Source: Candidatus Methanophagales archaeon | GTDB taxonomy: Archaea; Halobacteriota; Syntropharchaeia; Alkanophagales; Methanospirareceae | DNA length: 61,394 bases | NCBI GenBank assembly: GCA_025435355.1 | Contig: JANJFQ010000001.1 | Coordinates: 1-61,394, forward strand | Direction of reading: 5' to 3' | Shown: positions 23,996 through 41,608 of the stretch, one piece after another | Layout of the letters: each line of letters begins with the position of its first letter | How positions within the stretch are numbered: position 1 is the stretch's first letter | Position numbers and translations under genes: made by a program | Notes under the pieces: model-generated | What the model was told of the DNA's origin: nothing | The model's database searches: none | Seen by the model: the letters and a program-made list of their open reading frames with translations, nothing else

Positions 23996-25864
23996 TCATT
24001 TTATAAGCCACCCATGTATAAACATAGCTATCAAATACAAAGCGATAAAGATAAGCACCAGTAGCATTGCATTCCCTATGTTCAATCTTACCATTGGTTC
24101 TTCTGCCGGTTGCCTCTTCTTCACCTCCTCCAAATCTCGCTCATATTCCGCAGCCCTTTCTGCAGTAGCAATAGGTTTCTCCACCTTTAGCCTTGCTTCT
24201 TCTCCCTTTATTCTCAACGCAGCCATTGGATTCCTGCTGACCCAGACAAAAAACCCTGCCATTCTCATTACATTATGGTCAATGTAGTTTGCAAACGCCA
24301 TCAGCGGTCCTTCGCAGAACCATATAACTCTTTTCCCCGTTATCCGGTAGAACCAGTCGGTATCAAGCGTAATTGTCGGCGTACCATGAAGCATTCCCCT
24401 TAGCAGCCAAAACGCTACAAATGTGAACAGAAGGAGCTGGCTCATTGCTACCACATGACCCGCCGCAAAGGGTTCATAATGAACTGGATACGGAAGCATG
24501 TTGTAAAGTATTTTTGGATACACACCGAGAAGTGTGCACAAAAACGCGGTTATGCCCATTGCCGCGAGCATATTCTTAGGTGGCTCTCTTGCCTCGCATA
24601 CTGGCTCCTCTCTTGCAAACCACGCGCCCCAGGGAAGTTTTAGACCTGTATGCAGGAAGGTTCCTATTGAGGCGCCTTCGAGCATCAGCCATATAATTGA
24701 ATAATGCCACATCGCAGAGGCAGTAACAATCATTGTCTTACTCACGAATCCGTTGAATAGAGGAAATCCTGAAATCGAAAATGCACCTATCATGTAAAGC
24801 CAAAAAGTGATGGGCATGTATTTGTATATGCCACCCAGTTCGGTCAGTTTGCTTCTTCCCGTTACCTCTATTATTGCACCCATGCCCATGAAAAGTAACG
24901 CCTTATACAAAATATGACAGAAAGCATGTGCAGCCGCACCGTTTAGCGCCATTTCTCCAGCCGCAGTGCCAAAAACACCCATTCCCACTCCACACACCAT
25001 GTATCCTACCTGGGAGATGATGTGATAAGCTAAAAGTCTTCTTATATCATTCTCAAGCACTGCGTAAACAACCCCGTACACCGCCATTATCGCTCCTAAC
25101 CATATCAGAATCTCAACACCCGGGAAACCCCTTATCAGCACGTATATCGCACTCTTTGTGGTAAATGCGGTTAGAAACACCGCACCGGTAACAGTCGCTT
25201 CTGGATACGCATCAGCCAGCCACGCGTGTAAAGGTGGCACGGCGGCATTTATGATAAAGGCGGTAAACACGAGGTAAGAAGCCAGATACTCACTCCCCAG
25301 CCCCCATCCAAAAGCTTCAAAGGCGATGGAACCCGTGTTTTGCAGTTGTAAAACTACTCCCCCTAACAGACATATACCACCGAAAAAGTGCACCATGATG
25401 TATCGGAACCCCGCACCATAAGCTGCTTTTGTCCTTCGATACCAGATGAGGAATAGCGAAGACCATGCCATCACCTCCCAGAAGAAGAACAGAACAAAAA
25501 GGTCACCTGCGAAAACCACGCCCAGCGTGCTCCCAACGTAGAAGAAAGCGGCTACATGCTGCCAATTCTCCTTTATGTGAATTGCATAAAGAATCATGCA
25601 AAAGGATGCAATCACAAATATATATGCAAAAACCATGCTCAGCCGGTCTATTCTGCCGAAGGTAAGTTCATATCCTAAGAAAGAAAGGAACCATGTTTTC
25701 CCTTCTGACAGAAGCACGCCTCTCGACATGAGCAGAAGGTTTATAAATGCTACTGCCGGGAGTAAGAGCAGATATGCCTGTTTCACTCTCATTTTTCCCC
25801 GTAAAACGGGTATTAGCAGTGACCCAAAGATGTATATGAGTCCCGGGTGAAACCACTCAATCAT
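23996..25864 (-). CDS. antiporter-like subunit (PF00361-type), 'C-type' with C-terminal helix+TM tail
   Basis: 'LHAWLADAYPEATVTGAVF', 'LLAYHIISQVGYMVCG', 'GGIYKYMP'. The tail is 'SRNPMAALRI...YERDLEEVKKRQ...IGNAMLLVLIFIALYLIAMFIHGWLIK'. The start is set at MIEWFHPGLIY (ORF track 25915). Confidence 0.8.
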   Translation of the reverse strand: MIEWFHPGLIYIFGSLLIPVLRGKMRVKQAYLLLLPAVAFINLLLMSRGVLLSEGKTWFLSFLGYELTFGRIDRLSMVFAYIFVIASFCMILYAIHIKENWQHVAAFFYVGSTLGVVFAGDLFVLFFFWEVMAWSSLFLIWYRRTKAAYGAGFRYIMVHFFGGICLLGGVVLQLQNTGSIAFEAFGWGLGSEYLASYLVFTAFIINAAVPPLHAWLADAYPEATVTGAVFLTAFTTKSAIYVLIRGFPGVEILIWLGAIMAVYGVVYAVLENDIRRLLAYHIISQVGYMVCGVGMGVFGTAAGEMALNGAAAHAFCHILYKALLFMGMGAIIEVTGRSKLTELGGIYKYMPITFWLYMIGAFSISGFPLFNGFVSKTMIVTASAMWHYSIIWLMLEGASIGTFLHTGLKLPWGAWFAREEPVCEAREPPKNMLAAMGITAFLCTLLGVYPKILYNMLPYPVHYEPFAAGHVVAMSQLLLFTFVAFWLLRGMLHGTPTITLDTDWFYRITGKRVIWFCEGPLMAFANYIDHNVMRMAGFFVWVSRNPMAALRIKGEEARLKVEKPIATAERAAEYERDLEEVKKRQPAEEPMVRLNIGNAMLLVLIFIALYLIAMFIHGWLIK

Positions 25865-26087
25865 AGTAATCCTCCTCCTTCTGAAGCCAGTGATGTCCAA
25901 GCGCTTTTGACGCAACGATGATGATGATACAGCCGATAAAGCCGTAGATTGCGCTGAAAACGGGTAATTTCTCCCACCAGAAATGCGGATGGAGAAGGTG
26001 TAAATGATAAACGAGAACGCCTGCTAATACACCCGCCGCGAGACTGACATAAAGCATCAAAAACAAATGCCTCATCGTTATTTTCAT
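25857..26087 (-). CDS. small His-rich 2-TM membrane protein
   Basis: 'MKITMRHLFLMLYVSLAAGVLAGVLVYHLHLLHPHFWWEKLPVFSAIYGFIGCIIIIVASKALGHHWLQKEEDYYD'. The start is chosen to match the paralog at 38278..38514 (ORF track 26105). Confidence 0.65.
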   Translation of the reverse strand: MKITMRHLFLMLYVSLAAGVLAGVLVYHLHLLHPHFWWEKLPVFSAIYGFIGCIIIIVASKALGHHWLQKEEDYYD

Positions 26088-26097
26088 CTTTGTCTCT

Positions 26098-27615
26098 TTA
26101 CACACCTCCTAAATTGCTGACTGCCATCTCTGCAAGATTTAAGATTACGTCTGTAACAGGATTTGGGAAACAAAAAATGATGGCGAAGATTGCGGTTATT
26201 GTTAAGGGAACGACCATGAACATAGAAGATTCTTTTATTTTTGGTTTTCCATCGCTCAAACCAGATTCTGATCCTTCCGACTTGCCAAAGAACGCGGTAT
26301 ATATAATAGGGAAAAAATAAACGACATCGAGCAGGGAACTTATCAGGATAACAGCTAAGAAAATCAGCTCGCCGGCTTCCAATGTTCCCAGACAAAGGAA
26401 CCATTTACTTACGAATCCACACGCCGGTGGCGCTCCGCACATTCCAAGCGCACCCACGGTAAATGCAAACATTGTTACTGGCATCGTTCGTCCTATGCCG
26501 CCCATCTCGCTTATGTTCCTCTTTCCCGATGCTACCATTATGGAACCCGCACACATAAAGAGGGTTATCTTCATGAATCCATGAAAGGGGATGTGAATCA
26601 TTGCCCCTGTTATACCCATGGGACCTAATAACGCCACACCGAAGATGATGTAAGACAACTGGCTTATCGTGGAATACGCAAGTCTTCTTTTCAGGTTGTC
26701 CTGTGCAATCGCAAACAGAGAAGCGACAATCATCGTAAAAGATGCTAAACAAGCGAGTATCACGCCAAGACCTAGTTCGCTCATCAAATCCACGCCATAT
26801 ATGTAACACACCAGCCGCACAATTCCAAATACGCCCGCCTTTACCACTGCTACCGCATGTAAAAGCGCACTTACAGGCGTTGGTGCCGCCATTGCAGTGG
26901 GAAGCCACGAGTGGAAAGGCATCCACGCTGCTTTCATGAACCCCAGCAGGAATAACATGAACAATACCATCAGTGCCGCTCGTGATGCTTCAGAAGCAAG
27001 GTTTGGTATTCCTCCACTCACAAAATCCGTCGTTCCTGCAAAATGGTAGGTTAAAACCACAGCAGCTAAGAAGAAACAGCCTGAGGAAAGCAGATACGCT
27101 AAATATTTACGACCTGCAAATAGCGCTTCCGGTGTCTGGTCATGCGCCACTAACGGATACGTTGAGACCGTTAATATCTCATAAAAGACGAACATCGTGA
27201 GCAGGTTCCCGGAGAGAGCCACACCCACCGCACCGAAAATGGCGAAAGCGAAGCAGAAGTAGTATCGTGTTTGGGCATGCTCGTGCAGCGACCTCATATA
27301 TCCGATGGAGTAAGAGGATACTAGAATCCACAAGAAAGAAGAAGTAATGGCGAAAATAAGCCCAAAGGCATCTACTTCGAAGCCAAAATCAACAGCCGGA
27401 AATGCAGTGAAGAACGTGTATTTGATGACGCCTCCCCCGATAATTGCGGGTATCATGGAGATGATGATAAGAAATTGCATTATGCTTGCGAACATCGTCC
27501 AGCTCTCTCTTATGTTCGGTCGCTTGCCAGATAATACTATAAAGATAGAGGCAATTGCAGGGCATAAGATTGCTAACACCGGTCTATACGATATAGATAT
27601 TAATTCCTCTATCAT
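26098..27615 (-). CDS. antiporter-like subunit, 'B-type' (MrpA N-terminal/NuoL-like or second MrpD-like)
   Basis: 'VDAFGLIFAITSSFLWILVSSYSIGYM', 'FYEILTVSTYPLV', 'FHSWLPTAMAAPTPVSALLHAVAVVKAG', 'LAYSTISQLSYI'. Confidence 0.8.
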   Translation of the reverse strand: MIEELISISYRPVLAILCPAIASIFIVLSGKRPNIRESWTMFASIMQFLIIISMIPAIIGGGVIKYTFFTAFPAVDFGFEVDAFGLIFAITSSFLWILVSSYSIGYMRSLHEHAQTRYYFCFAFAIFGAVGVALSGNLLTMFVFYEILTVSTYPLVAHDQTPEALFAGRKYLAYLLSSGCFFLAAVVLTYHFAGTTDFVSGGIPNLASEASRAALMVLFMLFLLGFMKAAWMPFHSWLPTAMAAPTPVSALLHAVAVVKAGVFGIVRLVCYIYGVDLMSELGLGVILACLASFTMIVASLFAIAQDNLKRRLAYSTISQLSYIIFGVALLGPMGITGAMIHIPFHGFMKITLFMCAGSIMVASGKRNISEMGGIGRTMPVTMFAFTVGALGMCGAPPACGFVSKWFLCLGTLEAGELIFLAVILISSLLDVVYFFPIIYTAFFGKSEGSESGLSDGKPKIKESSMFMVVPLTITAIFAIIFCFPNPVTDVILNLAEMAVSNLGGV

Positions 27616-29147
27616 GGTGCTGCATACACCCCCAATCCAAACATTGAATTGACCTGGTCTAATAAGGGTATAGGTATCTCAGTGAGCCAGAGAATACCCA
27701 TGATGATGCAGAGCAAAGCAAGTGTTAATACCGGGATGAGCATGCTAGGTGGTATTTCATCTTTACCTGAACCAGATGGGTGAGAATGACTCTCTTCTCT
27801 CTTCATGTACATCATTTCTATCACGCGCCAGAAATAAACGAGGTTGAGGAGCGTGCTGAGCAGCATAACCGCTACAAATATGAATTTCCCGGATTCCAAA
27901 GAAGCAAGTATTATATACACCTTCGACACAAATCCCACGCTCGGCGGCACACCTATCATTGAAATCGCCGCTAACGTAAACGCTGCACAGGTATAGGGCA
28001 TTTTCCTACCCAAACCCTGAAAATCTGCTATATTCCACAATTCCGCCTTGTAAATAAAAGCACCGGCAACCAGAAACAAACATCCCTTCATCAATGCGTG
28101 GTTCAATATGTGCATCAATGCCGGGGTCAGCCCACCCCAAAGGGGTGAGTGTGTGGAAATGGCAAGACCAACCGCAAGCATGATGTAGCCCATTTGCGAA
28201 ACTGAGGAATAAGCAAGCATCCGTTTCAAATTATACTGCGCTATTGCAAGTATAGAACCCACGATTATGCCTATCGCCGCTATCCAGCAAAGAAAATCGA
28301 ATATGATGGGTACGTAATCTGTGATAAATTTCAGCGTGAATACGGAAAAACAGACCCTTATGAATGCGTATGTGGAGACCTCGATGATTATACCGGAAAG
28401 TAGTGCGCTTATCTCCGAAGGTGCAAAGGCATGTGCATCTGGTAACCACGTATGAAGCGGGAATAGCGCCATTTTTATGCTTAGCCCAACCATGAAAAAA
28501 GCAAAAGCCGCCTGAACTACCTTATTCCCATATAAAGAAGGCAATAAGAGCGATAGGTCGTGCATGTTCAGCGAACCCGTTACCGAATATAAAAATCCTA
28601 TCCCCAGCAAGAAGAAACAAGCACCAATAGAACCCAGCACAAGATAAGTGAAGCTCGCTTTCAGCGCTATTTTACCCCTCGATGCTATTAACGCATACGA
28701 AGATAGGGACGTTATCTCGATGAACACGTACATGTTAAATATATCGCCGGTCACGGTTATACCGCACAGACCAGTAATGAGGAGTTGATAAATGACATAA
28801 AAAGGGACAATTTTATGAGGCAGTTCGTGCTCTATGCTCCTCTTTGAATACGTGACACATATCAAAGCTAAGAATAGAAGTATGACCAATGCATAAGCAT
28901 TCAAAGCATCCACGACATATTCTATACCCCATGGCGGGCTCCATCCTCCAAGCCAGTAACGTATAGTTCCTACGGTACGGACATAATGCAGGATAAAAAC
29001 AGCCATGACGAATTGAACGAGAATGGTTGCGATGGAGATAAAACAGCACGATTTCTTGTTCAGCCGGCCAGCAATCAAGATAGTGAATGCGGAAAACAGA
29101 GATATTACAATCACAAGCACCGGGAAATGTTCAACTGCTGTCAGCAT
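27612..29147 (-). CDS. antiporter-like subunit, 'A-type' (MrpD-like)
   Basis: 'YWLGGWSPPWGIEYVVDALNA', 'TGDIFNMYVFIEITSLSSYALIA', 'LHTWLPDAHAFAPSEISALLSG', 'LAYSSVSQMGYI'. Confidence 0.8.
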   Translation of the reverse strand: MLTAVEHFPVLVIVISLFSAFTILIAGRLNKKSCCFISIATILVQFVMAVFILHYVRTVGTIRYWLGGWSPPWGIEYVVDALNAYALVILLFLALICVTYSKRSIEHELPHKIVPFYVIYQLLITGLCGITVTGDIFNMYVFIEITSLSSYALIASRGKIALKASFTYLVLGSIGACFFLLGIGFLYSVTGSLNMHDLSLLLPSLYGNKVVQAAFAFFMVGLSIKMALFPLHTWLPDAHAFAPSEISALLSGIIIEVSTYAFIRVCFSVFTLKFITDYVPIIFDFLCWIAAIGIIVGSILAIAQYNLKRMLAYSSVSQMGYIMLAVGLAISTHSPLWGGLTPALMHILNHALMKGCLFLVAGAFIYKAELWNIADFQGLGRKMPYTCAAFTLAAISMIGVPPSVGFVSKVYIILASLESGKFIFVAVMLLSTLLNLVYFWRVIEMMYMKREESHSHPSGSGKDEIPPSMLIPVLTLALLCIIMGILWLTEIPIPLLDQVNSMFGLGVYAAP

Positions 29148-29170
29148 CAGAATTGTTTATAGGAAACAAA

Positions 29171-29214
29171 ATATATAAAGATATCCCTTTTTCTCCACGG
29201 GACACCGGTGACAC
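29171..29214 (-). promoter_or_regulatory. putative BRE/TATA promoter plus upstream conserved operator (GTGTC-ACCG-GTGTCCC, core CACCGGTG)
   Basis: The minus strand reads 'GTGTCACCGGTGTCCCGTGGAGAAAAAGGGATATCTTTATATAT'. About 40 of 47 nt are shared with 41680..41728, upstream of the paralogous operon. Confidence 0.55.
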
Positions 29215-29353: not shown

Positions 29354-30349
29354 ATGGGCATAAAAGAATCCATAGGCAAAGTGATAATGGATGGGCGAAC
29401 ATTAGTAGCAGTAATATTTGTAGCGATTTTGTGGCGAGCGGTCATTAGTCTTGATGGCGAGATAGCGCTTTGGGAAAGTATGTGTTCGGGTATTGCTCTT
29501 TTCATTTTTGGCTGGGTTCTCTTTGCTTACATGTATCTCAAGTCCAAGAACCTGGAGGGCTGGGTAATGTCGAACTGGATTTATCAAGGGATTGCCGTTA
29601 GCATGGTCTCAATAAACATTTACGTTGTTATTTACTATTCGATGAGATGGTTCGAGTTACTGCATGTAGAAGCTTATCCGCAAATGGATTACCTTTTCAG
29701 AAATATAAGATATATCGCATTAGTGGTGTTTTATTGCGCTGTAATATGGTCAGCGATATATCTAAAAAAGATGCACGAGGATTATATATCGCTATCCAGA
29801 GAGAAGGGTCTTCTGCGTCTCCTATCTCCCTATTTATACGTAAGGGGTAAAAAGCTGAGAGAAATGGGCATTAAAGAGTTGATAGGCACGGTGATAACTG
29901 ATGAACGAACATTATTAGTGATAGTAGGGTTAGCGTTTTTATGGCGAACAGTCATAAGCATTGACTATAATATAGCGCTTTGGGAAAGTATGTGTTCAGG
30001 TATCGCGCTCTTCATCATGGGCTGGCTTTTTTTCGCCTACATATATTCTATGTCTAAGAAACAGGAAGACTGGTTGGATTTGATTAAAGTCTATCATGGA
30101 ATTGCCATTGGTCTAACCGCTATAAACATTTATGTTCTCGTTTACTATGGAATGAGGTGGTATAGCTTAGCGGGCTTAGTAGAAGAAGTTTTTGTGCCAC
30201 TGGATTACCTTTTCAGAGATGCAAGATTTTTCGCATTAGCGATATTCTACTGTGCATCAATAGTGCTATCGAAATTTCTAAAAAGGGCGTATGAGGAATA
30301 TCGGTTGCTATCCGCGGAAGCGGAGAGCAGTAAATTATCCTCGCAGTAA
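29354..30349 (+). CDS. polytopic membrane protein, internally duplicated family (third gene)
   Basis: 'ILWRAVISLDGEIALWESMCSGIALFIFGW...YYSMRWF' and 'FLWRTVISIDYNIALWESMCSGIALFIMGW...YYGMRWY'. It is divergent from the antiporter module that starts at 29147. Confidence 0.65.
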   Translation: MGIKESIGKVIMDGRTLVAVIFVAILWRAVISLDGEIALWESMCSGIALFIFGWVLFAYMYLKSKNLEGWVMSNWIYQGIAVSMVSINIYVVIYYSMRWFELLHVEAYPQMDYLFRNIRYIALVVFYCAVIWSAIYLKKMHEDYISLSREKGLLRLLSPYLYVRGKKLREMGIKELIGTVITDERTLLVIVGLAFLWRTVISIDYNIALWESMCSGIALFIMGWLFFAYIYSMSKKQEDWLDLIKVYHGIAIGLTAINIYVLVYYGMRWYSLAGLVEEVFVPLDYLFRDARFFALAIFYCASIVLSKFLKRAYEEYRLLSAEAESSKLSSQ

Positions 30350-30376
30350 TTGCTCAATATCGATTTGCTTGTGATG

Positions 30377-33046
30377 CTAAAATTCTGCCTTCACAGTAAC
30401 TATCTCAAAAGGTTTCATCTTCAATTCTATTCTTTTACCATTTTTTTTCAACTTTTTTACCACACCCTCGTCCTCTTCCTCCAGCAGGTTCACCGCCTTG
30501 ACAGTCTTTGGCTCTCTGAACAGAGTTATTTCAGCATTCGTTTTTTCTCCCTTCGTCTCATAGAATCTTAGAATTGCTCCCTCTCCGTCCTCTGCCCTCT
30601 TAAGTGCGGATAAAACCACACTTTCCGGTTCCATTTTCAAAAAATACCGCTTCAAAGGCATTTTTTTGCCCTTCGGTAACTGCAATGCATCCAAAATGAA
30701 ATTGAATTCAAGAGCTTGCTTGTATGATGCGGCTTCTCTCCAATCTCCTCTGTGCGGATAAATGGAATATCTAAATACGTATCTTTTAAACTCCTGCGCA
30801 TCTGGAACAGGTATTGCAGGTCCTGTCCTACCATCCGAGGACAGCATTGAAACACTTCTGAGCAACGTCAAATAGATGTCTCCATCTCTTACCATGTTTT
30901 CCGGCGTACCCATGTGCATCACGGTCAAGCCCTTCTTTCCGTCAGAATAATCAAGCCACCTCAGCGATGGAAATACACCGCAGGGCCTCTCAACCCACTT
31001 CCCTTCCGGCTTACTTCTAAATTGGCATGTCGGACGGGAAACAACACCAAATTGTGTTCCGCATGCGTAATCAGAAGATTTTATGTCCGTGGAGAACCTG
31101 ACCCTGAGTCGTGCCCTCGGATGCTGGTCTTCTATATTCGTGATGAAATCTATTCTTGGGATGTCCTTATAAACTATAATTTTTTTCCCGCACGCTAGGT
31201 ATTTATGCTCCCATATAAGTGGTTCCAGCTTCTCCGTCAATCTGTACGGCCATCTCAGTGAAAAATAATCGGTTTTGACATTGATAACTCGTCTCAAAGG
31301 ACTTTCATTTATCCAGAAGTTCTTTACCCTGAACGAGCCGTACTTAACACCCTCGCCCGTTTCTGTTTTCACAGGGATATACAATTTTTGCAGATGGTAG
31401 TATAGGTCACCGGTTTCTTCCTCCAGCACAAGCTCATTCGCCATGCAAATCCTCTCGCCTTCTTGAATCACGTCAATTAACCCGGTGGCAGGGTCCGTCT
31501 CAACCCCAAAGAATCCATTTTCTATGGTGTTCCCCCTTATCAGGATATAATTCGGGTCATAACGATAATGTTTAGGCTCCCGCTCAAGGATCTTATAGAC
31601 CTTATATCCCAGTCCAGGAACAGTGGGAACAAATCCTATCCTCGCATATCTCAACGAGTCATCTTCATACCTCACAAACCGTATGACCTCTACATCTATT
31701 TCCTCTTCACCACTCATTAATCCTTTAATCGCTACTACTTCCCCTTTTTCAAAATTCAAATCCATCTCTACCCAGTCCTTCACTTCCCACGACAGCGAGT
31801 TAAATACTATTATATCCCCACTTTCAACTTCCCTTCCACCTTCTTCAGATTCCTGCTCTACTATTAAAGGGAACATGCGAGGGCAGAGGGTGCGCATTTT
31901 GGTCCTGAGGAAATGCAGATATTCTCTCACATCATCATAACCCCTGTCCATCCCTGTTCCCGGAACTACATCATGAAACGCGATGTACAAGATTTTTCGC
32001 CAGCAGTCTCTCAACTCATCAGAGGGATAGTAGCCATTCAGGATAGAGGATATTGTACACCATCGCTCGCAAGACAACAACCAACTTTCGTGGCTGCAAA
32101 GTCCCTGTTTTATCCACATCCTGCTCGAGCAGCAATCAGGAAAAACCGCGGAGTACTTCCCTGAATACATCTCCCCCTTCCTTACCTCCATCTTAAGATT
32201 CTTTTCCTCTATTTCCTTCTCCAGTGCTTCAAAGAATTCACTTGGCGTTGCAATCTTCATCTTCGCTACTTCTCCTTTATTCTCTTTCCATGCCTTCACA
32301 ACCTCCGGTGTTTCTGGTTGCGGCATCGTAACTCCGCTCCCGGAAGGCATCAAGATATGAGAGGTTGCTGCCACTTCCTTGAGTTTCTCATAGCTTTCTT
32401 CCAGCTTTGTCAAGTCCAACCCTGCCCTGTATCCTAAAGGCATCCAGTGAGCTAAAATTATCGTTTCATCCAAACCCTTCCAGAAGAATTCCGAGGGCTT
32501 TCTCTTCGATGCCCCCCTTCTGAATGCAACATATTTGTAGCCGGATTTTTTGTATATCTGCGGGAGCTGGGCATTCAAACCAAAACTGTCTGCCTGCCAC
32601 ATTACCGGAACATCAACCCCGAACTTTGCCCTTATATATCTCTTACCCATCAAGATTTCTCTTATCAGTGTCTCTCCTTCCGGGAGCATTGTATCTGCCA
32701 TCAGGTATTCTCCGTCAGCAATCTCTATCTTGCCTTCCTTTATGCACTTCGCAATCTTTGAGAACAGTTCTGGATACCTTTTCTCCATCTCCTCCAGCAG
32801 AAAGGTTTGCTCTATCAAGAACTTGTAATCTGTCTTCTCAACAAGCCCAACCACTTCCTTCAGAATGAGCAGCATATTGATATAAAAATAATTCTCCTTC
32901 GTGAAGACCCAGATGGCATCGTAATGCGTGTGTGGGACGAGGTAAATCGTGTCTTTTTCTTTTTTCTTCCCGTTTGTCATATCTTTCATTTCAGCTTGTG
33001 TCAATACTTTCAAAAAAAATCCATATCTCTTTAGGCTTGAGAGCAC
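30377..33046 (-). CDS. GH38-family alpha-mannosidase
   Basis: N-terminal 'LVPHTHYDAIWVF' (HxHxDxxW metal site), 'QADSFGL', size ~870-890 aa. The true start may be the internal Met at 32989. Confidence 0.7.
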   Translation of the reverse strand: MLSSLKRYGFFLKVLTQAEMKDMTNGKKKEKDTIYLVPHTHYDAIWVFTKENYFYINMLLILKEVVGLVEKTDYKFLIEQTFLLEEMEKRYPELFSKIAKCIKEGKIEIADGEYLMADTMLPEGETLIREILMGKRYIRAKFGVDVPVMWQADSFGLNAQLPQIYKKSGYKYVAFRRGASKRKPSEFFWKGLDETIILAHWMPLGYRAGLDLTKLEESYEKLKEVAATSHILMPSGSGVTMPQPETPEVVKAWKENKGEVAKMKIATPSEFFEALEKEIEEKNLKMEVRKGEMYSGKYSAVFPDCCSSRMWIKQGLCSHESWLLSCERWCTISSILNGYYPSDELRDCWRKILYIAFHDVVPGTGMDRGYDDVREYLHFLRTKMRTLCPRMFPLIVEQESEEGGREVESGDIIVFNSLSWEVKDWVEMDLNFEKGEVVAIKGLMSGEEEIDVEVIRFVRYEDDSLRYARIGFVPTVPGLGYKVYKILEREPKHYRYDPNYILIRGNTIENGFFGVETDPATGLIDVIQEGERICMANELVLEEETGDLYYHLQKLYIPVKTETGEGVKYGSFRVKNFWINESPLRRVINVKTDYFSLRWPYRLTEKLEPLIWEHKYLACGKKIIVYKDIPRIDFITNIEDQHPRARLRVRFSTDIKSSDYACGTQFGVVSRPTCQFRSKPEGKWVERPCGVFPSLRWLDYSDGKKGLTVMHMGTPENMVRDGDIYLTLLRSVSMLSSDGRTGPAIPVPDAQEFKRYVFRYSIYPHRGDWREAASYKQALEFNFILDALQLPKGKKMPLKRYFLKMEPESVVLSALKRAEDGEGAILRFYETKGEKTNAEITLFREPKTVKAVNLLEEEDEGVVKKLKKNGKRIELKMKPFEIVTVKAEF

Positions 33047-34593: not shown

Positions 34594-34860
34594 TTATGGA
34601 GGGAAAAGCATTTCCCGGTACAGGATAACGGCTTTAAGCGCGTAAAAAAATAGATACGCCATCACACAAAGAACAACGAAAAGAACACCCATGAAAAGAC
34701 CGAAGTAATAACCTAAACTCTCCACTTCTACTTCAGGGCAATTTTCCTTTATTAATTCCAATGTCTCAGGGTCACATGAACCCAAACCACGGATGAGCCT
34801 AATGGTGCATGCGGGACATCTAATAAAACATTTAATTGCACTGCCGAATTTACTTCCCAT
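34594..34860 (-). CDS. small Cys-containing protein with C-terminal TM anchor
   Basis: 'KCFIRCPACTIRL...NCPEVEVESLGYYFGLFMGVLFVVLCVMAY'. It ends 39 nt upstream of the KaiC-like gene. Confidence 0.55.
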   Translation of the reverse strand: MGSKFGSAIKCFIRCPACTIRLIRGLGSCDPETLELIKENCPEVEVESLGYYFGLFMGVLFVVLCVMAYLFFYALKAVILYREMLFPP

Positions 34861-34915: not shown

Positions 34916-36412
34916 TTATAATAGTCCTATTACAGAGTGGAGGAGATCCATGATGGGTTCAGGATACAAGCCTATGATGAAAGATATAACTGCCAGGATG
35001 AGAAGAGGAATACTCATCGTTAATGGCGGGTCCCTAATCTTAGCGTTATTTGCTAGTTCGGGCTTTAAGGGACCAAAGAATATTCTATGCGCAGCCCAGA
35101 ATGTATAAGCACCCGTTAATATGGTTGAGAGGATACCCAGACTTGCAATTACCAGTCCTATGGAAGTTGGATTTGCACTGAAAATGCCGGTAAACAATAT
35201 CCATTTTCCTGTAAATCCACTTGTGAGAGGAACACCTGTGAGTATTACTGCGCCTGCTATCCAGAGCGTAGCGGATATTGGCATCTTATGTATAAGTCCA
35301 CCCATCTTACTCATATTCCTGATCCCCGTTACATAAACTATTATACCGGCAGTTGAAAAGAGAATGGCTTTACCCAGGATATGACTCAGGAAGTAATAGA
35401 CTCCGCCTTCAATACTCCAGATTGTGAGTGCTCCCAGCCCAATGAGCGAGTATGATATCTGACCGATAGTTGAGCACGCACAGAGTCGCTTCACGTCATC
35501 TTGAGCCAGCGTGAGAAGAGCGCCATATACTATGGTTATCAGAGCCATTATCATAATAGGTATGCCGAACACTTTGAGGTCATTATGGAGTGGCAGGATG
35601 AGAACCCTAACAATCACATACGCAGCTATATTAGCATAAACGGCAAGCAATCCCGCTATGCAGGTGGGATGCTCTGCGTGAACCGAGGGCATCCAAACGT
35701 GAAGCGGAAATACTGCCATCTTGGTAAATAGACCGAGAAAGATAAGTAATGCAATCCAAAAAGCCATTGGATTCCCTGCAAGAGCATGTAACTCTGAGAT
35801 TTCAAAGGTACCCATCTGAGAGTAAACTAATACAGACCCAAATAAGACGAATGTTCCACCAACAATTCCCCATAGGAAACACATTACGGCAACTCTAAAG
35901 CGCTCTACATAGCCAAAGTAACTCATGATGAAGTAAAGGGGAATAACGAGTAATTCTATAAAGAGGTATATTATTATGAGGTTTGTAGCAAAGCAAATAC
36001 CAAGGAAACTTATGGGGAAGAGGAGGTAGAGCCAGAAATAGGTGGTGTAATACGCAAGCCGTGTCTTTTCATCTTCGTCTTCATATATTACCTCTAATCG
36101 GTGTTCTACATAGTGCAGTGAGTAAAACGAAAGAGCGGTGCATATTATATTTATTATCAATGCAACAGGTAGACTCAAACCGTCAGCCAAAAGCCCAAAG
36201 GTCACATAGGGCCCCCACACATATTCCTCGCGAATCACCGTACCCTGATAAACGCGGATGCCCGCTATGAAGAGAAGAGCAGTAGTGTATAGTAGAGCCA
36301 TAATGGGTATCCATCCAGCTCTTCTTCCTATTTTGCGCCTGGTTAAAAGTATGACCAGAGCGGCTATAACTGGCACGAGCATTGTTTGCAGGAGAATATA
36401 GGGTATCATCAT
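34916..36412 (-). CDS. antiporter-like subunit, 'D-type' (NuoM/ND4-like)
   Basis: 'LLADGLSLPVALIINIIC', 'FIELLVIPLYFI', 'LHVWMPSVHAEHPTCIAGLLA', 'CSTIGQISY', 'GGLIHKMP'. The start overlaps the upstream stop by 4 nt. Confidence 0.75.
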   Translation of the reverse strand: MMIPYILLQTMLVPVIAALVILLTRRKIGRRAGWIPIMALLYTTALLFIAGIRVYQGTVIREEYVWGPYVTFGLLADGLSLPVALIINIICTALSFYSLHYVEHRLEVIYEDEDEKTRLAYYTTYFWLYLLFPISFLGICFATNLIIIYLFIELLVIPLYFIMSYFGYVERFRVAVMCFLWGIVGGTFVLFGSVLVYSQMGTFEISELHALAGNPMAFWIALLIFLGLFTKMAVFPLHVWMPSVHAEHPTCIAGLLAVYANIAAYVIVRVLILPLHNDLKVFGIPIMIMALITIVYGALLTLAQDDVKRLCACSTIGQISYSLIGLGALTIWSIEGGVYYFLSHILGKAILFSTAGIIVYVTGIRNMSKMGGLIHKMPISATLWIAGAVILTGVPLTSGFTGKWILFTGIFSANPTSIGLVIASLGILSTILTGAYTFWAAHRIFFGPLKPELANNAKIRDPPLTMSIPLLILAVISFIIGLYPEPIMDLLHSVIGLL

Positions 36413-38229
36413 TCCACCACCACCGTAAATAGTATATAGACGAGAAGGACGAACATAGCAAGAAGTATGTAGAGTAAATTATACGACAACTCTCTATCCT
36501 TAATTTGCTTTATTTTGTCATGGATCTCTTTGAAATTGAGTAGTTCCGGAAGTCTCACGTGAAACGCTTTATCCAGTGGATTCTCAACATACGTAACTAC
36601 GAGGGGCCAAAAATCATTGCCGAAAAAACCTGCCATTCTCATTACATTACGGTCAACGTAGTTCGCGAACGCCATTAACGGCTTCTCGCAGAACCATATA
36701 ACCCTCTTCCCCGGTATTCGATAGAACCAGTCGGTATCAAGCGTGATTGTTGGCGTACCATGAAGCATTCCCTTTAGCAGCCAAAACGCTACGAATGTGA
36801 ACAGAAGGAGCTGGCTCATTGCTACCACATGACCAGCCGCATAAGGAACGTAATCAACTGGATAAGGAAGCATGTTGTAAAGTATTTTTGGATACACACC
36901 GAGAAGTGTGCACAAAAACGCGGTTATGCCCATTGCGGCAAGCATATTCTTAGGTGGCTCCCTTGCCTCGCATACTGGCTCCTTTCTTGCAAACCACGCG
37001 CCCCACGGAAGTTTCAAACCGGTATGCAGGAAGGTTCCAATCGAAGCGCCTTCGAGCATCAGCCATATAATTGAATAATGCCACATCGCAGAGGCAGTGA
37101 CAACCATTGTCTTGCTCACGAATCCGTTGAATAGAGGAAATCCGGAAATCGAAAATGCGCCGATCATATAAAGCCAAAAAGTGATGGGCATGTATTTGTA
37201 GATACCACCCAATTCGGTCAGTTTGCTTCTTCCCGTTACCTCTATTATTGCACCCATACCCATGAAAAGGAGCGCTTTGTAAAGGATATGGCAGAAAGCA
37301 TGCGCAGCCGCACCATTTATTGCCATTTCTCCAGCCGCAGTGCCAAAAACGCCCATCCCCACCCCGCATACCATGTATCCCACCTGGGAGATGATATGAT
37401 ATGCAAGAAGTCTTCTTATATCATTCTCAAGTACTGCAAATACAACCCCATACAGCGCCATGATCGCTCCTAACCATATCAGAACCTCAACACCCGGAAA
37501 GCCTCTTATCAGCACGTATATCGCACTCTTCGTGGTAAATGCAGTTAAAAACACCGCTCCGGTAACCGTCGCTTCCGGATACGCATCCGCCAGCCAAGCA
37601 CCTAAAGGAGGCACGGCAGCATTTATGATAAATGCGAGAAATATAAGATAAGAAGCCAGATACTCACTTCCTAATCCCCATTCAAAACTTTCAAATGCGA
37701 TAGAACCCGTAGCTTGCAACTGTAACACAACACCTGCTAATAGGCATATACCGCCAAACATGTGCACCATGATAAACCTGAATCCCGCACCGTATGCTGC
37801 CTTCGTTTTACGATACCAAATTAAGAGCATTGATGACCATGCCATCACTTCCCAGAAGAAGAATAGAGTAAAGAGGTCGCCTGCGAATACCACTCCCAGC
37901 GTGCTGCCGACGTAGAAGAAAGCGGCTAAATGCTGCCCCGTCTCGCTTACATGAAGTGCATAAATCGTCATGCAAAAGGATGCAATCACGAATACGTATG
38001 CGAATACCATGCTCAGCCGGTCCACTCTCCCGAGGGTAAGCTCGTATCCCATGAAGGAGAGCTGCCAGAAAGGGCCAGTCCCGAATACGCCCTTTGATAT
38101 GAGTATGAGGTCAATAAACGCTACTGCGGGCAACAGAAGCAAATACACCTGCCTCCCTTTACCCTTTAACACGGGTATCAAAAGGGCTCCTAAGAGAAAT
38201 ATAAGTCCTGGGTGCAACCATTCAATCAC
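36409..38229 (-). CDS. antiporter-like subunit, 'C-type', with a different C-terminal tail
   Basis: The core is near-identical to 23996..25864 up to 'NVMRMAGFF'. It then diverges into 'GNDFWPLVVTYVENPLDKAFHVRLPELLNFKEIHDKIKQIKDRELSYNLLYILLAMFVLLVYILFTVVVE'. Confidence 0.8.
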   Translation of the reverse strand: MIEWLHPGLIFLLGALLIPVLKGKGRQVYLLLLPAVAFIDLILISKGVFGTGPFWQLSFMGYELTLGRVDRLSMVFAYVFVIASFCMTIYALHVSETGQHLAAFFYVGSTLGVVFAGDLFTLFFFWEVMAWSSMLLIWYRKTKAAYGAGFRFIMVHMFGGICLLAGVVLQLQATGSIAFESFEWGLGSEYLASYLIFLAFIINAAVPPLGAWLADAYPEATVTGAVFLTAFTTKSAIYVLIRGFPGVEVLIWLGAIMALYGVVFAVLENDIRRLLAYHIISQVGYMVCGVGMGVFGTAAGEMAINGAAAHAFCHILYKALLFMGMGAIIEVTGRSKLTELGGIYKYMPITFWLYMIGAFSISGFPLFNGFVSKTMVVTASAMWHYSIIWLMLEGASIGTFLHTGLKLPWGAWFARKEPVCEAREPPKNMLAAMGITAFLCTLLGVYPKILYNMLPYPVDYVPYAAGHVVAMSQLLLFTFVAFWLLKGMLHGTPTITLDTDWFYRIPGKRVIWFCEKPLMAFANYVDRNVMRMAGFFGNDFWPLVVTYVENPLDKAFHVRLPELLNFKEIHDKIKQIKDRELSYNLLYILLAMFVLLVYILFTVVVE

Positions 38230-38277
38230 TATCTATCACCTCCAGAGCGCACGGCGCTCATTTTCAAGGTGCATTTT

Positions 38278-38514
38278 TCAGTGCTTCTCATAGTAATCCT
38301 CCTCCTTCTGAAGCCAGTGATGTCCAAGCGCTTTCGACGCAACGATGATGATAATACAACCGATAAAGCCGTATATAGCACTGAAAACGGGTAATTTCTC
38401 CCACCAGAAATGAGGATGAAGAAGGTGTAAATGGTAAACGAGAATGCCAGCTAAGACACTCGCCGCAAGACTTACATAAAGCATCAAAAACAAATGTCTC
38501 ATTTTTATTTCCAT
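38278..38514 (-). CDS. small His-rich 2-TM membrane protein
   Basis: Near-identical to 25857..26087 ('...YHLHLLHPHFWWEKLPVFSAIYGFIGC...SKALGHHWLQKEEDYYEKH'). Confidence 0.65.
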   Translation of the reverse strand: MEIKMRHLFLMLYVSLAASVLAGILVYHLHLLHPHFWWEKLPVFSAIYGFIGCIIIIVASKALGHHWLQKEEDYYEKH

Positions 38515-38517
38515 TTT

Positions 38518-40074
38518 TTATATTCCCCCTACTAAACCTGCAACTGCGATTTTTGCAAGCTCTAATATGTAAAACGTATTCGGGCGCAAACAGAAAATAA
38601 TGGAGATAATTGCCGTTAGGGTCAAAGGAACGAGCATGAAAAGCGGAGCTTCTTTTATCTTCGTCTTTTTATTCTTATTCTCACTATCAGTCCACTCTCT
38701 GGATTTACCAAAGAACGCAGTAAATATGATAGGGAAAAAATAAACGATATCGAGCAAGGAACTTACCAGGATAACAGCCAAGAAAATCAGCTCGCCGGCT
38801 TCCAGTGTACCCATGCAAAGATACCATTTACTTATAAATCCTGACACCGGGGGGATACCACTCATTCCAAGCGCACCTACGGTAAATGCTAACATCGTTA
38901 CCGGCATCGTTCGTCCTATGCCCGCCATTTCGCTTATGTTCTTCTTTCCCGATGCCACCACTATGGAACCTGCACACATAAAGAGGGTTATCTTCATGAA
39001 CCCGTGAAAGGGAATGTGAATCATTGCCCCTGTTACACCCATAGGACCCAATAGCGCAACGCCAAAGATTATATAGGATAGCTGGCTTATGGTGGAATAT
39101 GCAAGCCTTCTTTTAAGGTTATCTTGCGCGATGGCAAACAAAGAAGCGACAATCATAGTAAACGCCGCCAGGGAAGCGAGTATTATCCCCAGTCCAAGCG
39201 CACTCATCAAATCCACGCCATATATGTAACACACAATTCTGACGATTACAAACACCCCTGCCTTCACCACTGCTACGGCATGCAAAAGCGCACTCACCGG
39301 CGTTGGCGCAGCCATTGCCGTCGGCAACCAACTGTGGAAAGGCATCCATGCTGCTTTCATGGAGCCCATCAAGAATAGCGCAAATAACATCATCAACGTC
39401 AAGCGTGATGCGGAATCGAGATTTAATATTCCACTGTTCTCAAAATCAGTCGTCCCGGTAAGGTAAAACGTTAACACTATCGCGACAAAAAAGCACCAAC
39501 CCGAAAAAAGCAAATATGCTAAGTATTTACGACCCGCAAATCGTGCTTCCCGTGCCTTATCAGACTCCTCTGCCTTGTGACCCCACGCGGGTAAGCCATC
39601 GTGAGCCACTAAGGGATATGTTGCTATCGTTAATGCTTCATAAAAAAAGTACATCGTGATCAGGTTCTTAGACATTGCTATACCTACCGCACCGAAAATG
39701 GCTAAAGCGAAACAGGCGTAGTATCGCGTTTGGGCGTGTTCGTGCAATGACCTCATATATCCTATGGAGTAGGACGACACAAGAATCCACAGGAAGGAAG
39801 AAGTAATCGCGAAAATAAGACCAAAAGCATCTATTTTGAATATAAAAACAATCCCGGTAAATACCGTAAAGAGAGGGCATTCAATTACGTTTCCTTCCAC
39901 AACAATTGGTACCATGGAACCGATAATCAAAAACTGTAGTATACTGGCGAACATCGTGCAGCTCTCTCTTATGTTCGGTCGCTTGCTAAATAGTAATATG
40001 AGAAAAACACAAATAAAGGGGCATGAAATTGCTAACAACGGTCTTATGGATTCTACTATCGCCAATTCATCCAC
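38518..40074 (-). CDS. antiporter-like subunit, 'B-type'
   Basis: Paralog of 26098..27615, with an extra loop 'GLPAWGHKAEESDKAREARF'. Confidence 0.8.
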   Translation of the reverse strand: MDELAIVESIRPLLAISCPFICVFLILLFSKRPNIRESCTMFASILQFLIIGSMVPIVVEGNVIECPLFTVFTGIVFIFKIDAFGLIFAITSSFLWILVSSYSIGYMRSLHEHAQTRYYACFALAIFGAVGIAMSKNLITMYFFYEALTIATYPLVAHDGLPAWGHKAEESDKAREARFAGRKYLAYLLFSGWCFFVAIVLTFYLTGTTDFENSGILNLDSASRLTLMMLFALFLMGSMKAAWMPFHSWLPTAMAAPTPVSALLHAVAVVKAGVFVIVRIVCYIYGVDLMSALGLGIILASLAAFTMIVASLFAIAQDNLKRRLAYSTISQLSYIIFGVALLGPMGVTGAMIHIPFHGFMKITLFMCAGSIVVASGKKNISEMAGIGRTMPVTMLAFTVGALGMSGIPPVSGFISKWYLCMGTLEAGELIFLAVILVSSLLDIVYFFPIIFTAFFGKSREWTDSENKNKKTKIKEAPLFMLVPLTLTAIISIIFCLRPNTFYILELAKIAVAGLVGGI

Positions 40075-41608
40075 CTCCTAAAATTGTAAGTGATGCCCTA
40101 ACGGCTAATCTAATGAGTGAAATGGGGAATAAGCCCCCTATAAGGCAGAAGAACGCAAAAACAACAACTGAGAATACCATTGGAAAAGGTGCCTCGTGGG
40201 TTCTAACAGCACCGCTTTCTATCATTAAAACCTTTGTCACTTTGAGATAATATGCAGCGGCGTATATAACATTAAATAAGAGAAGGATAAAAGTCGTAAG
40301 TATCACCACACCGCCAACAGACCGAAGTGCCATTGCCACAGACATTATTATTAGAAATTTACTCCAAAAACCAATTAAAGGCGGCAAACCTAATAATGAG
40401 AGCAAGCCTACCGTCATTGAGTAACCGGAATAGGGCATGTCCCTTCCAATGCCTCCCATTTTCGAGAGCTCCCTCGTATGGATACTGGAATGAATGTTGC
40501 CAGAACCCAGGAACACCATCGCTTTGGCTACACCATGACTCAAAATATGGAGTAAGGCACCAGCCATAGCTAAAGATGCCGCTTCAGGAGGGGTTTTTGA
40601 TGGTTCAGCTACGGTTGAGAGAATATAAGCGGCAACTCCTACACCTGTGGCTATAATACCTATGTTGACAATGCTTGAGTAGGCGAGAAGTCTTTTCAAG
40701 TCATTTTGGAAGTAGGCAAAGAGGTTTGCCACTGTCATTGACAGGAGACCCAGGATAAGCAAGATGAGACCATAATTGTAATACAAGGGAAAGAGTGTGA
40801 AAAGCACTCTAATTAACGCGTAAAATCCAACCATTATCATTATTCCACTCAGCATTGCTGAGATCGAACTGGGTGCGGCTGGGTGTGCTTCTGGTAACCA
40901 CGTATGAAGCGGAAAGACAGCCATCTTTATACCCAATCCCACGATGAAGAAAATAAAAGCCGCTTGAACTACTCTATTTCCATATAAAGGCGGCAATAAA
41001 AGCGAAAGGTCCTGTATGTTCAGCGAACCCGTTACTGAATACAGGAAACCGATGCCAAGCAAGAAGAAACAAGCACCGATAGAACCCATTACGAGGTAGG
41101 TAAAACTTGCCCTCAGTGCCATTCCCCCTTTCGAACCTACTAATGCATACGCAGCTAAAGACAATATCTCGAGAAACACGTACATGTTAAATATATCGCC
41201 GGTCACGGTTACACCGCATAAACCCGCTATAAAGAGTTGATAAATGGTATAAAAAGGAACAATTTTATGTGATAATTCTGGTAGTTCGTGCTCTATACTA
41301 CTTTTTGCATGTAGTGCGCATAGCAAGCCTAAAAACAGAATGATGACTAATACATAAGCGTTTAACACATCCACGAGATATTCTATGCCCCAGGGCGGCT
41401 TCCATCCTCCGAGCCAGTAATGTATGGTTCCTTTAGTAAGGACATGATTCAGGATAAAAAAAGACATGACGAGCTGAACGAGAATGGCTGCGATAGAAAT
41501 GAAACAGCAAGATTTCTTGTTCAGCTGGCCAGCAATCAGAATGGTGAATGCAGAAAACAGCGATATTGCAACTACAAGAACCGGGAATTGTTCAACTGGA
41601 CTTAACAT
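40067..41608 (-). CDS. antiporter-like subunit, 'A-type' (MrpD-like)
   Basis: 'YWLGGWKPPWGIEYLVDVLNA', 'TGDIFNMYVFLEILSLAAYALVG', 'LHTWLPEAHPAAPSSISAMLSG'. Confidence 0.8.
   Translation of the reverse strand: MLSPVEQFPVLVVAISLFSAFTILIAGQLNKKSCCFISIAAILVQLVMSFFILNHVLTKGTIHYWLGGWKPPWGIEYLVDVLNAYVLVIILFLGLLCALHAKSSIEHELPELSHKIVPFYTIYQLFIAGLCGVTVTGDIFNMYVFLEILSLAAYALVGSKGGMALRASFTYLVMGSIGACFFLLGIGFLYSVTGSLNIQDLSLLLPPLYGNRVVQAAFIFFIVGLGIKMAVFPLHTWLPEAHPAAPSSISAMLSGIMIMVGFYALIRVLFTLFPLYYNYGLILLILGLLSMTVANLFAYFQNDLKRLLAYSSIVNIGIIATGVGVAAYILSTVAEPSKTPPEAASLAMAGALLHILSHGVAKAMVFLGSGNIHSSIHTRELSKMGGIGRDMPYSGYSMTVGLLSLLGLPPLIGFWSKFLIIMSVAMALRSVGGVVILTTFILLLFNVIYAAAYYLKVTKVLMIESGAVRTHEAPFPMVFSVVVFAFFCLIGGLFPISLIRLAVRASLTILGGG

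Follow-up and report, generated by a model that had tools for sequence, protein, structure and literature searches.

In complex I, the Mrp antiporters, MBH and their relatives, no moving parts are understood less well than the antiporter-like subunits and the lateral helix that links them. The lateral helix (HL) is universal in the complex I superfamily, where it holds a variable number of antiporter-like subunits and has a length that matches the number of subunits spanned; in MBH it is found on a separate small subunit, MbhI (PMC8165549). Non-canonical "group 3" Mrp gene orders are known (Ito et al. 2017, PMC5703873), and an "ANME-specific" Mnh/Mrp subtype, patchily distributed and thought to be horizontally mobile, has been described from the comparative genomics of anaerobic methanotrophic archaea (ANME) of the ANME-2 and ANME-3 groups (PMC12180501; bioRxiv 10.1101/2024.05.23.595608). 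Here, we analyzed an Mrp-type (CPA3) locus on contig JANJFQ010000001.1 of a Candidatus Methanophagales archaeon. The whole metagenome-derived NCBI contig, 61,394 bp in length, was used and is referred to below as the window. The locus contains two similar gene cassettes, which are most probably old paralogs that have been patchily and repeatedly homogenized while keeping cassette-specific ends, and these ends perhaps set partner specificity. We give this reading a probability of about 0.72.

Each cassette encodes three antiporter-like subunits (A, B and C) and a small His-rich protein. The gene order is identical in the two cassettes and both are on the minus strand, as the sequence-only reading of this DNA had stated: A1-B1-s1-C1 (29147->23996, cassette 1) and A2-B2-s2-C2 (41608->36409, cassette 2). 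A single Mrp core operon lies directly upstream of cassette 2, the two being separated by a 148-nt spacer between D3 and A2, and cassette 1 stands alone 7 kb away. In the following, L001–L080 denote homologous loci in other genomes or contigs, the distant ones having been retrieved with a C-type protein as the query, and the prefix w marks a copy from the window (wC1, wC2, ws1, ws2). The features of the two cassettes, transmembrane helices being denoted TM, are:

41757..47994, minus strand: Mrp core operon, mrpF-G-E-(MbhE-like)-B-C, then a third A-B pair, D4 (43295-44821) and D3 (41757-43298)
41680..41720, minus strand: promoter-like element of cassette 2, located between D3 and A2; homologous to the element upstream of A1
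40067-41608, minus strand: A2, whole gene, first of cassette 2
40884..41608, minus strand: A2 N-terminal half, TM1-7, A-type, homogenized with A1
40067..40883, minus strand: A2 C-terminal half, TM8 and onward, belonging to another PF00361 subfamily
38518..40074, minus strand: B2, B-type; its 5' two-thirds belong to the lineage of X-containing operons
38278..38514, minus strand: s2, small His-rich membrane protein
36409..38229, minus strand: C2, C-type, with a C1-clade body and an X-type tail
36409..36621, minus strand: C2 X-type tail, NDFWPLV..ENPLDKAFH..SYNLLYILL, then TM
34916..36412, minus strand: X, extra NuoM-like antiporter-like subunit; PF00361; TIGR01972 at 245 bits; its ATG overlaps the C2 stop in ATGA
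29171..29210, minus strand: promoter-like element of cassette 1, consisting of the palindrome CACCGGTG, then GAGAAAAAG, then the TATA box TTTATATAT, some 24 nt ahead of the A1 start
27612..29147, minus strand: A1, A-type antiporter-like subunit (MrpD/MbhH-like); PF00361; 69% amino acid (aa) identity to D4 and 55% to A2
26098..27615, minus strand: B1, B-type, start overlapping the A1 stop; PF00361 and PF00662; 76% aa identity to B2 and 71% to D3
25857..26105, minus strand: s1, small His-rich membrane protein, real start probably near 26087 or 26075
23996..25864, minus strand: C1, C-type (MrpA-N/NuoL-like) with the canonical lateral-helix and TM tail; start used MIEWFHPG
24248..24904, minus strand: young conversion tract, C1 side, codons ~321-539; partner 36622-37278
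23996..24247, minus strand: C1 tail, WVSRNP...YERDLEE...HGWLIK

The assignment to the Mrp/CPA3 family was made from the core operon, in which MrpE, MrpF, MrpG, MrpB and MrpC are encoded together (PF01899, PF04066, PF03334, PF04039 and PF00420, all above the gathering cut-off at 44955-47994; PF20501 was also matched in the operon), and from the presence of PF00361 subunits of the MrpA and MrpD types. PF00361 was found in A1, B1, C1, A2, B2, C2, X and D3 with E values of 1e-41 to 1e-62, and D4, which was outside that scan, was assigned to the A-type from its identity to A1. Among these proteins, C1 (692.8 bits) and C2 (687.4 bits) alone exceed the cut-off of an NCBIfam model, namely the 564 bits of NF009310 (PRK12668, the long form of "Na+/H+ antiporter subunit D"); the alignments cover model positions 2-583 of 584 in C1 and 3-555 of 584 in C2. 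The match to C2 stops at 555 because its tail belongs to another class. The best models for the other large subunits stayed below their cut-offs, with NF006236 for the B-type (cut-off 663; B1 618, B2 598, D3 588) and NF009305 for the A-type (cut-off 700; A1 405, A2 308).

AlphaFold2 (AF2) models of C1 and C2 were built from 73-sequence alignments and reached a pTM of 0.82-0.83. Both models have a confident 14-TM core, after which come a lateral helix and an anchoring TM at the C-terminus, the arrangement that characterizes L-type subunits: helices 504-544, 546-562 and 568-583 with the anchor at 596-621 in C1, and helices 501-538, 541-547, 551-564 and 566-576 with the anchor at 582-604 in C2. 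The models place the point at which the tails diverge at the end of the first lateral-helix segment. A Foldseek search with the C2 model returned the MrpA chains 6Z16_A and 7QRU_A at the top, followed by NuoL/NdhF/ND5 chains. Where NuoL/MrpA have their canonical TM7 lysine, 73/73 aligned C-type proteins carry an invariant asparagine (N206 in C1, at about 25247-25249; N203 in C2, at about 37621-37623); the Glu of TM5 and the Lys residues of TM8 and TM12 are retained.

Compared to the Mrp (Mnh/Pha) complexes (6Z16, 7QRU, 7D3U), the locus has MrpE, F, G, B and C, homologs of the C-terminal part of MrpA, and PF00361 large subunits, and its C-type proteins are nearest to MrpA in sequence and predicted fold, including the lateral helix and TM anchor. 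The differences are that MrpA is split, that the C-type TM7 lysine is replaced, and that the conserved small His-rich subunit has no Mrp counterpart. Furthermore, the group 1 Mrp complexes studied so far have two antiporter-like subunits, whereas the operon and the downstream cassette encode six here, and the stand-alone cassette three more. The small His-rich protein had no match in Pfam, NCBIfam or the PDB, where the sole hits were to ND4L at E values above 1. Related systems are also found in the MBH and MBS complexes of Thermococcales (6CFW, 6U8Y) and the membrane subunits of Hyf/FHL: the order of the core parallels MbhA-H, and the A-type subunits, especially the C-half of A2, best match models of the MbhH/HyfB type; unlike those systems, the window has no hydrogenase or other redox module and contains many more antiporter-like subunits.

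The NuoL/ND5 subunit of complex I is also an L-type subunit, in which a long lateral helix and a terminal TM clamp the neighboring subunits. Variants of complex I with an extra NuoM and a lengthened HL have reportedly been described by Chadwick et al. in 2018 in ISME J. In the window, a different tail form tracks the extra subunit X; in contrast to those variants, the X-linked tail is of another sequence class and is not elongated, and there is no quinone or peripheral arm. The locus resembles in outline the ANME-specific Mnh/Mrp subtype, which is defined by the presence or absence of MnhBCEFG: both are distinct Mrp subtypes in ANME-related archaea, and the metagenome-assembled genomes (MAGs) nearest to this locus carry the labels Methanosarcinales, Methanophagales or Halobacteriota archaeon. 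Absent from that work (PMC12180501) are multiple D-type cassettes, subunits of chimeric make-up, alternative forms of the tail and concerted evolution. A literature search found no paper joining "gene conversion" with "antiporter-like subunits", nor did it turn up any account of the multiplicity of cassettes, of the A2 chimera, of the classes of tail or of concerted evolution.

Nucleotide alignment of the two regions with blastn recovered all of the blocks that had been described from the sequence:

24248-25675 against 36623-38049, minus strand: C body, 87.4% nucleotide (nt) identity
25861-27134 against 38288-39554, minus strand: small gene and 3' part of B, 80.1%
27140-27585 against 39599-40044, minus strand: 5' part of B, 77.4%
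28432-29137 against 40884-41598, minus strand: N-half of A, 80.4%

The near-identical stretch with 5 differences in 114 positions holds at an offset of 12374, with the second coordinate moved by 4 nt, so that 24347-24460 pairs with 36721-36834. The homology of the C genes had been said to stop abruptly after NVMRMAGFF, and max-chi2 analysis did place a breakpoint at 24229/36615, where the identity falls from 0.85 to 0.35 (max-chi2 273; 0 of 1000 permutations); the NVMRMAGFF codons end at 24248 in C1 and at 36622 in C2. A second breakpoint separates A1 from A2 at codon 242 (28431/40883), with a drop in identity from 0.80 to 0.45 (max-chi2 193; 0 of 1000 permutations). With significant breaks in both A and C, divergence along the paralogs is not uniform. 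The A-type genes had also been called mosaic, which was correct insofar as the C-half of A1 is closer to D4 (about 70% nt identity) than to A2 (about 45%, with third positions near random). However, A1 and D4 have an identity of about 0.71 over most of their length, with only a weak 3' break at codon 465 (0.71, then 0.58; max-chi2 14, p about 0.01), and the mosaic gene is therefore A2, not A1.

The evidence for copying between the cassettes is clearest where tracts of different history adjoin. In a tree of C residues 1-199, wC2 groups with its orthologs from L003 and L006 at 100% bootstrap, and in the tree of residues 321-534, wC1 and wC2 are sisters at 97%. Quartet site patterns for wC1, wC2, L003 and the bacterial L001 are 62:8 in favor of orthology in codons 1-200, and reverse to 7:25 in codons 301-500 (Fisher p = 5e-11). 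Synonymous divergence (dS) between C1 and C2 along the gene is saturated, 1.02, 0.58, 0.32, and then saturated again. The youngest tract, with 90-97% nt identity and a dS of 0.32, includes the longest perfect run, of 71 nt (24501-24571), a length reached in 2/2000 permutations. In this tract, C2 differs from its own orthologs by a dS of 0.68-0.74 against a background near 0.4, which marks C2 as the acceptor, overwritten from C1. The tract reaches the junction itself, where wC2 has NVMRMAGFF like wC1, L003 has NVLRIAGFF and L006 has NVMKMAGFF. These comparisons date the youngest C tract to after the split from the L003/L006 lineage.

Similar switches were seen in the other genes. The two small genes s1 and s2 are 91% identical in nucleotides, compared to 78-86% with their orthologs (78% between s1 and its L045 ortholog). 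B1 and B2 are 83-90% identical in the 3' third (codons 341-460), and in the tree of residues 340-449, L045-B1 joins L007-B2 at 99% bootstrap; the grouping of the B2 orthologs has 100% support for residues 10-329 and 0% for residues 340-449. The N-halves of A1 and A2 have about 80% nt identity and a dS of 0.78. The clearest case of conversion is found in L006, where the N-halves of three A genes are 80-92% identical to each other and 62-72% to their window orthologs (bootstrap of the trio 100%), and their C-halves are orthologous to D4, A1 or A2, one each (bootstrap of the trio 0%, of the A2 clade 100%).

Overall, paralogs are nearer than orthologs in some tracts and the reverse is true of the adjacent tracts, and synonymous divergence is lower inside the tracts than in their flanks. 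Recurrent, tract-wise gene conversion between the cassettes, which had been proposed as recombination or conversion among modules, is thus strongly supported by the significant breakpoints, the switches in topology at 97-100% bootstrap, the quartet test and the range of dS. Concerted evolution by gene conversion is well known among prokaryotic paralogs, for example tufA/tufB and the rRNA operons. As in those cases, within-genome paralogs are nearer than orthologs in tracts, breakpoints are sharp and tract ages differ; in contrast to tufA/tufB, the conversion acts on multi-gene cassettes for a membrane complex, and its limits are set by conserved modules that lack homology to one another. The claim of concerted evolution is solid, but of an unsurprising kind.

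The first of these modules is the C-half of A2. The junction with A1 falls within 23 identical nt coding for the TM7 motif PLHTWLP, and beyond it even shared amino acids have different codons. The A2 C-half is only 32% identical to that of A1 and 30% to B1 at the amino acid level, compared to 59% between A1 and D4 in the same region. Its best NCBIfam models are those of the HyfB (PRK06521) and MbhH-like families, its best sequence match in the PDB is MbhH (6CFW_H), and its nearest non-orthologous database proteins are 40-54% identical. Affiliation with the C-type, or with the A subunits of L020-type operons, was considered and rejected for lack of resemblance. The chimera is present in all four genomes with a complete A2 (the window, L003, L006 and L007), with the C-halves forming a clade at 100% bootstrap, and comparison with L003 indicates purifying selection (dN 0.067, dS 0.31). 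At the TM8 position, the A paralogs have Lys in D4, Glu in A1 and Met in A2.

The second module is the tail of C2, which had been called unrelated and instead is a member of a second conserved tail class. The tails of C genes that are followed by X share the motifs ENPxDxxFH and (S/P)(Y/F/W)NL(L/I)Y ahead of the TM. This X-type tail also occurs in a Methanosarcinales clade with C bodies only 50% identical to that of C2. A hidden Markov model (HMM) made from the distant X-linked tails gave 19-33 bits for the five C2-type tails of the window's family (20.7 for wC2, a score exceeded by 1/3000 shuffles) and at most 8.4 bits for canonical or C1-type tails; intermediate forms are present among the database homologs. 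An X-type tail is accompanied by a downstream X in 12/12 loci, and the canonical WFSRNP tail in 0/27. X is conserved after C2 in L003, L004, L006, L007, L045, L078 and L080. C2 thus consists of a C1-clade body joined to a tail of the X-linked lineage. The overlap of C2 with X, noted earlier, was confirmed; the C2 stop and the X start share ATGA, which would couple the two genes translationally. The C2 tail is 13 residues shorter than that of C1.

The tail of C1 is composite as well. Its last ~45 codons (24006-24142) are 83% identical in nucleotides to the tail of C5 (10944-11077), a C-type gene elsewhere in the window with an overall protein identity to C1 of 48%. The composite tail is common to the C1 orthologs P0121, P0124, P0127 and P0128 from other samples, and the terminal similarity amounts to a second tail exchange.

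The homogenized sequence also includes a promoter-like element. The form CACCGGTG(TCYCGT)...GAGAAAAAG...TTTATATAT occurs ahead of both cassettes and nowhere else in the window, and the pattern CACCGGTG-N15-35-TTTATATA has 2 occurrences in the window against 0 expected. Related elements are found upstream of A1 or A2 in L003, L045 and L007. The element looks like an archaeal promoter, with a B recognition element (BRE) and TATA box, preceded by a palindrome; the TATA boxes are at 29171-29180 and 41680-41688. Since such a putative promoter stands ahead of A2, cassette 2 is probably a transcription unit separate from D3, despite following it. The palindrome CACCGGTG (CATCGGTG in relatives) is situated about 20 nt upstream of both TATA boxes, its positions being given as 29171-29178 and 41713-41720; it is tandemly duplicated in L003 (about 6540-6600) and is a candidate target of a regulator common to both cassettes.

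In the reading that we prefer, two old paralogous units, each comprising a putative promoter, A, B, the small protein and C, encode the antiporter-like chain of an Mrp-type complex. Non-reciprocal gene conversion has repeatedly overwritten the promoter element, the N-half of A, the 3' third of B, the small gene and the body of C, and has halted where homology ends, at PLHTWLP in A and after NVMRMAGFF in C. Beyond these stops lie the A2 C-half from the other PF00361 subfamily and, in C2, a distal lateral helix and TM anchor of the other form. Both special ends are kept in every related genome that holds the gene. The ends that resist homogenization may be what gives the subunits their partner specificity once the membrane arm is assembled. 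The tail of C would correspond to helix HL and the anchor of NuoL/MrpA, which clamp the row of antiporter-like subunits, and its alternative form would be matched to X. The C-half of A2 and the N-terminal part of B2 form a single contiguous unconverted block, which might coincide with the interface between the distal side of A and the proximal side of B in arms of the complex I type. A cell with this locus may be able to mount Mrp arms of alternative or extended form on a single core.

Several points weigh against this interpretation. The tails have low AF2 confidence (pLDDT 45-70). We considered the possibility that an extra subunit would go with a longer C2 tail, and rejected it given the shorter tail, which does not fit a simple model of a longer clamp for an additional subunit. 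The contiguous unconverted block could be only where the tracts happened to end, rather than a sign of selection at an interface. The trees were made by neighbor-joining on short segments. Finally, the moderately distant genomes contributed no full-length C1 ortholog with its context, and the direction and dating of conversion in C come mainly from the C2 orthologs.

The same observations could be accommodated if the cassettes were redundant spares, with the divergent ends as neutral leftovers at which conversion stops because similarity is low. Nucleotide homology ends at both junctions, and such an end would by itself suffice to stop recombination; in addition, cassette 1 has been reduced to A1 in L006 and to A1-B1-tail in L007, so that it would be dispensable in some lineages. 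A halt where homology ends fits the positions of the junctions; however, it leaves unexplained the retention of the link between tail and X across clades, the X-type tail having been kept in two clades with C bodies as divergent as those described above, with X downstream in every case. Purifying selection on the A2 C-half and the C2-X coupling also speak against neutral leftovers, and we consider it unlikely, although still worth weighing, that the cassettes are mere spares.

Equally tentative, and in the opposite direction, is an extension of the partner-specificity idea to a combinatorial kit for Mrp-type arms. The kit would combine a single core with interchangeable A-B-s-C cassettes and loose C genes, and the tails, either fused (at least 3 sequence classes) or free-standing (~90 aa), would be exchangeable clamps that choose the subunits, including X. 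Conversion would keep the ion-translocating cores uniform, and selection would keep the interfaces distinct. If true, such a kit would be a natural experiment on the function of helix HL across the complex I superfamily.

Somewhat less likely still is that the mosaic arose mainly by the import of segments from other genomes and not by copying between cassettes. C1-type bodies share 73-78% identity with those of bacteria from the NC10 and Syntrophobacterales groups, the window contains no donor for the A2 C-half, and horizontal movement has been reported for ANME-type Mrp loci (PMC12180501). The A2 C-half was probably acquired by import, and so, perhaps, was an entire cassette. However, the young tracts are nearest to the paralog in the same genome (wC1/wC2, ws1/ws2 and the three A genes of L006), which is the signature of intragenomic conversion, and import does not explain this ongoing homogenization. 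On the bacterial side, operons of the order F-G-E-x-B-C-A-B-s-C were found in L001, L002, L005 and L008 (NC10, Syntrophobacterales and Deltaproteobacteria MAGs), and their C genes are nearer to archaeal C1 than are many archaeal homologs, which points to inter-domain transfer of this Mrp operon type.

The sequence-only reading had favored a recent duplication followed by recombination or conversion. A simpler rival is a recent segmental duplication of a single A-B-s-C block, in which uneven constraint would account for the varying similarity and the ends would have been truncated or replaced at the junctions. The identical gene order and the long near-identical runs agree with this, and similarity does peak in the conserved catalytic parts. 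However, the synonymous divergence varies too, from saturated to 0.32 within C, and segment trees conflict at 97-100% bootstrap. In the unconverted parts, the window paralogs have a dS that is saturated for C codons 1-60, the C tail and the C-half of A, 1.02 for C codons 61-200, and 1.13 for B codons 10-340, the last being the same as between B1 and D3. Orthologs in the related loci have 75-90% protein identity and a dS of about 0.35-0.6, and these relatives already contain two-cassette layouts and both special ends. Over the 5' two-thirds, B1 and B2 fall into different clades: in the tree of residues 10-329, the B2 orthologs cluster with B genes from the distant X-containing operons L020 and L022 (bootstrap 84%, compared to 0% for residues 340-449), and B1 groups with D3-type and L021-type genes. 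We found neither uniformly low divergence nor absence of a copy from the relatives, and a recent duplication is very improbable. Given the near-saturated dS, the layout in relatives and the split of B1 and B2 between clades, the comparisons identify the cassettes as ancient paralogs, which may have separate origins. All reading frames are intact. Since dN/dS is well below 1 throughout all of the paralogs, all copies are functional and under purifying selection.

Comparison with sister genomes found the two-cassette layout also in L045, L007, L006 and L080. The order in L045 is C2-X-sm-K2-mannosidase-A1-B1-s-C1, and in L006 and L007 the segment A2-B2-s-C2-X-sm-K2 precedes a lone A1 (L006) or A1-B1-tail (L007). 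Synteny with the window is full for L045 and partial for L006, L007, L003 and L078. Of L045, L007 and L006, only L045 can carry a full second cassette, and it ends after 93 codons of C1. Cassette 2 is also contained in L003 and L078. The stretch linking the core to cassette 2 varies: it holds D4-D3 in the window, a single A-type gene in L006 (4794-6413) and an unrelated coiled-coil gene in L003 (5552-6271, reverse strand), and appears to be a hot spot for the gain and loss of antiporter-like genes.

That the layout is an artefact, a collapsed or chimeric assembly or binning of two strains or species, deserves next to no credence: repeats of 85-97% identity are hard to assemble and the contig is metagenome-derived, but the chimeric A2, the X-type tail and the layout are reproduced across L045, L003, L006, L007 and L078, the intact frames and low dN/dS speak against it, and L080, an independent 31.7-kb Joint Genome Institute (JGI) metagenome contig from a different sample, is 98.7% identical over 21.5 kb with the same genes and junctions and a C1/C2 identity of 87.6%. 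The comparison with L080 was also used to look for very recent conversion. The 289 differences from the window are spread fairly evenly, without concentration in the paralogous genes, and all conversion tracts therefore pre-date that strain split.

The natural domain swaps at this locus, with one C body bearing different tails, a tail class strictly linked to X, tails as small genes and an A subunit made of two subfamilies, define testable rules for the assembly and lengthening of the arm, and could serve work on the mechanism of complex I and Mrp. A practical consequence of concerted evolution is that single-gene "MnhD" trees mislead orthology calls in annotation. The window contains 12 PF00361 genes in total, and such a density in 61 kb points to a heavy investment of ANME-related archaea in the conversion of ion gradients, relevant to growth near the thermodynamic limit.

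The remaining genes around the cassettes include several further sets of paralogs. Downstream of X follow, in order, a small membrane protein, K2, a GH38 alpha-mannosidase with coordinates 30377-33046, a divergently oriented membrane protein, cassette 1 and K1:

34594-34860 and 33151-34554, minus strand: small membrane protein and K2 ATPase, downstream of X; paralogs of 21138-21386 and K1, respectively
22407..23795, minus strand: K1, KaiC/GvpD-like ATPase downstream of C1; PF07088 and PF06745; paralog of K2
22456-23748 against 33200-34496, minus strand: aligned parts of K1 and K2, 71.6% nt identity (blastn)

K1 and K2 have 61% aa identity and a dS of 1.14. The antiporter cassettes are flanked by three such pairs of paralogs: the KaiC/GvpD-like ATPases, the small membrane proteins, which are Cys-rich, and CBS-domain proteins (13187-13612 and 21518-21910). 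The ATPase and the small protein go with the cassettes in the archaeal relatives L004, L006, L007, L009, L039, L045 and L078, and had no blastp match in the bacterial loci examined; these pairs may serve in regulation or assembly. No hits came from scanning the window for Rfam families and tRNAs. Look-ups by exact sequence gave no match for C2 and X, probably owing to the start codons chosen, and did give matches for other proteins of the window. Three paralogous membrane proteins on the plus strand (29354-30349, 19125-20063 and 20129-21088) have no Pfam domain and contain an internal two-fold repeat each. One of them is divergent from the A1 promoter, and a reverse-strand ORF of ~336 aa is found at the equivalent place in L045, L006 and L007.

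A third antiporter cluster on the minus strand (10937-18894) contains C3 (16507-18366, real start near 18315), C4 (14023-15855), C5 (10937-12835) and a third His-rich small gene, s3 (18308-18538). Its layout matches that of the ANME-1 (Methanophagales) loci L011, L013, L014 and L016. Two free-standing tail genes, at 18619-18894 and 15905-16171 on the minus strand, encode proteins of 88-91 aa, which are homologous to the lateral-helix and TM tail of C3/C4 (33-46% identity, E 1e-12 to 1e-19) and resemble the separate HL subunit MbhI of MBH. Further genes of this kind were found in L007 (15982-16404), L011 (364-771) and L013 (9947-10237), with lengths of up to about 140 aa in other loci. In L007 and L011, the free-standing tail gene is directly 3' of a B-type gene, in the usual place of C.

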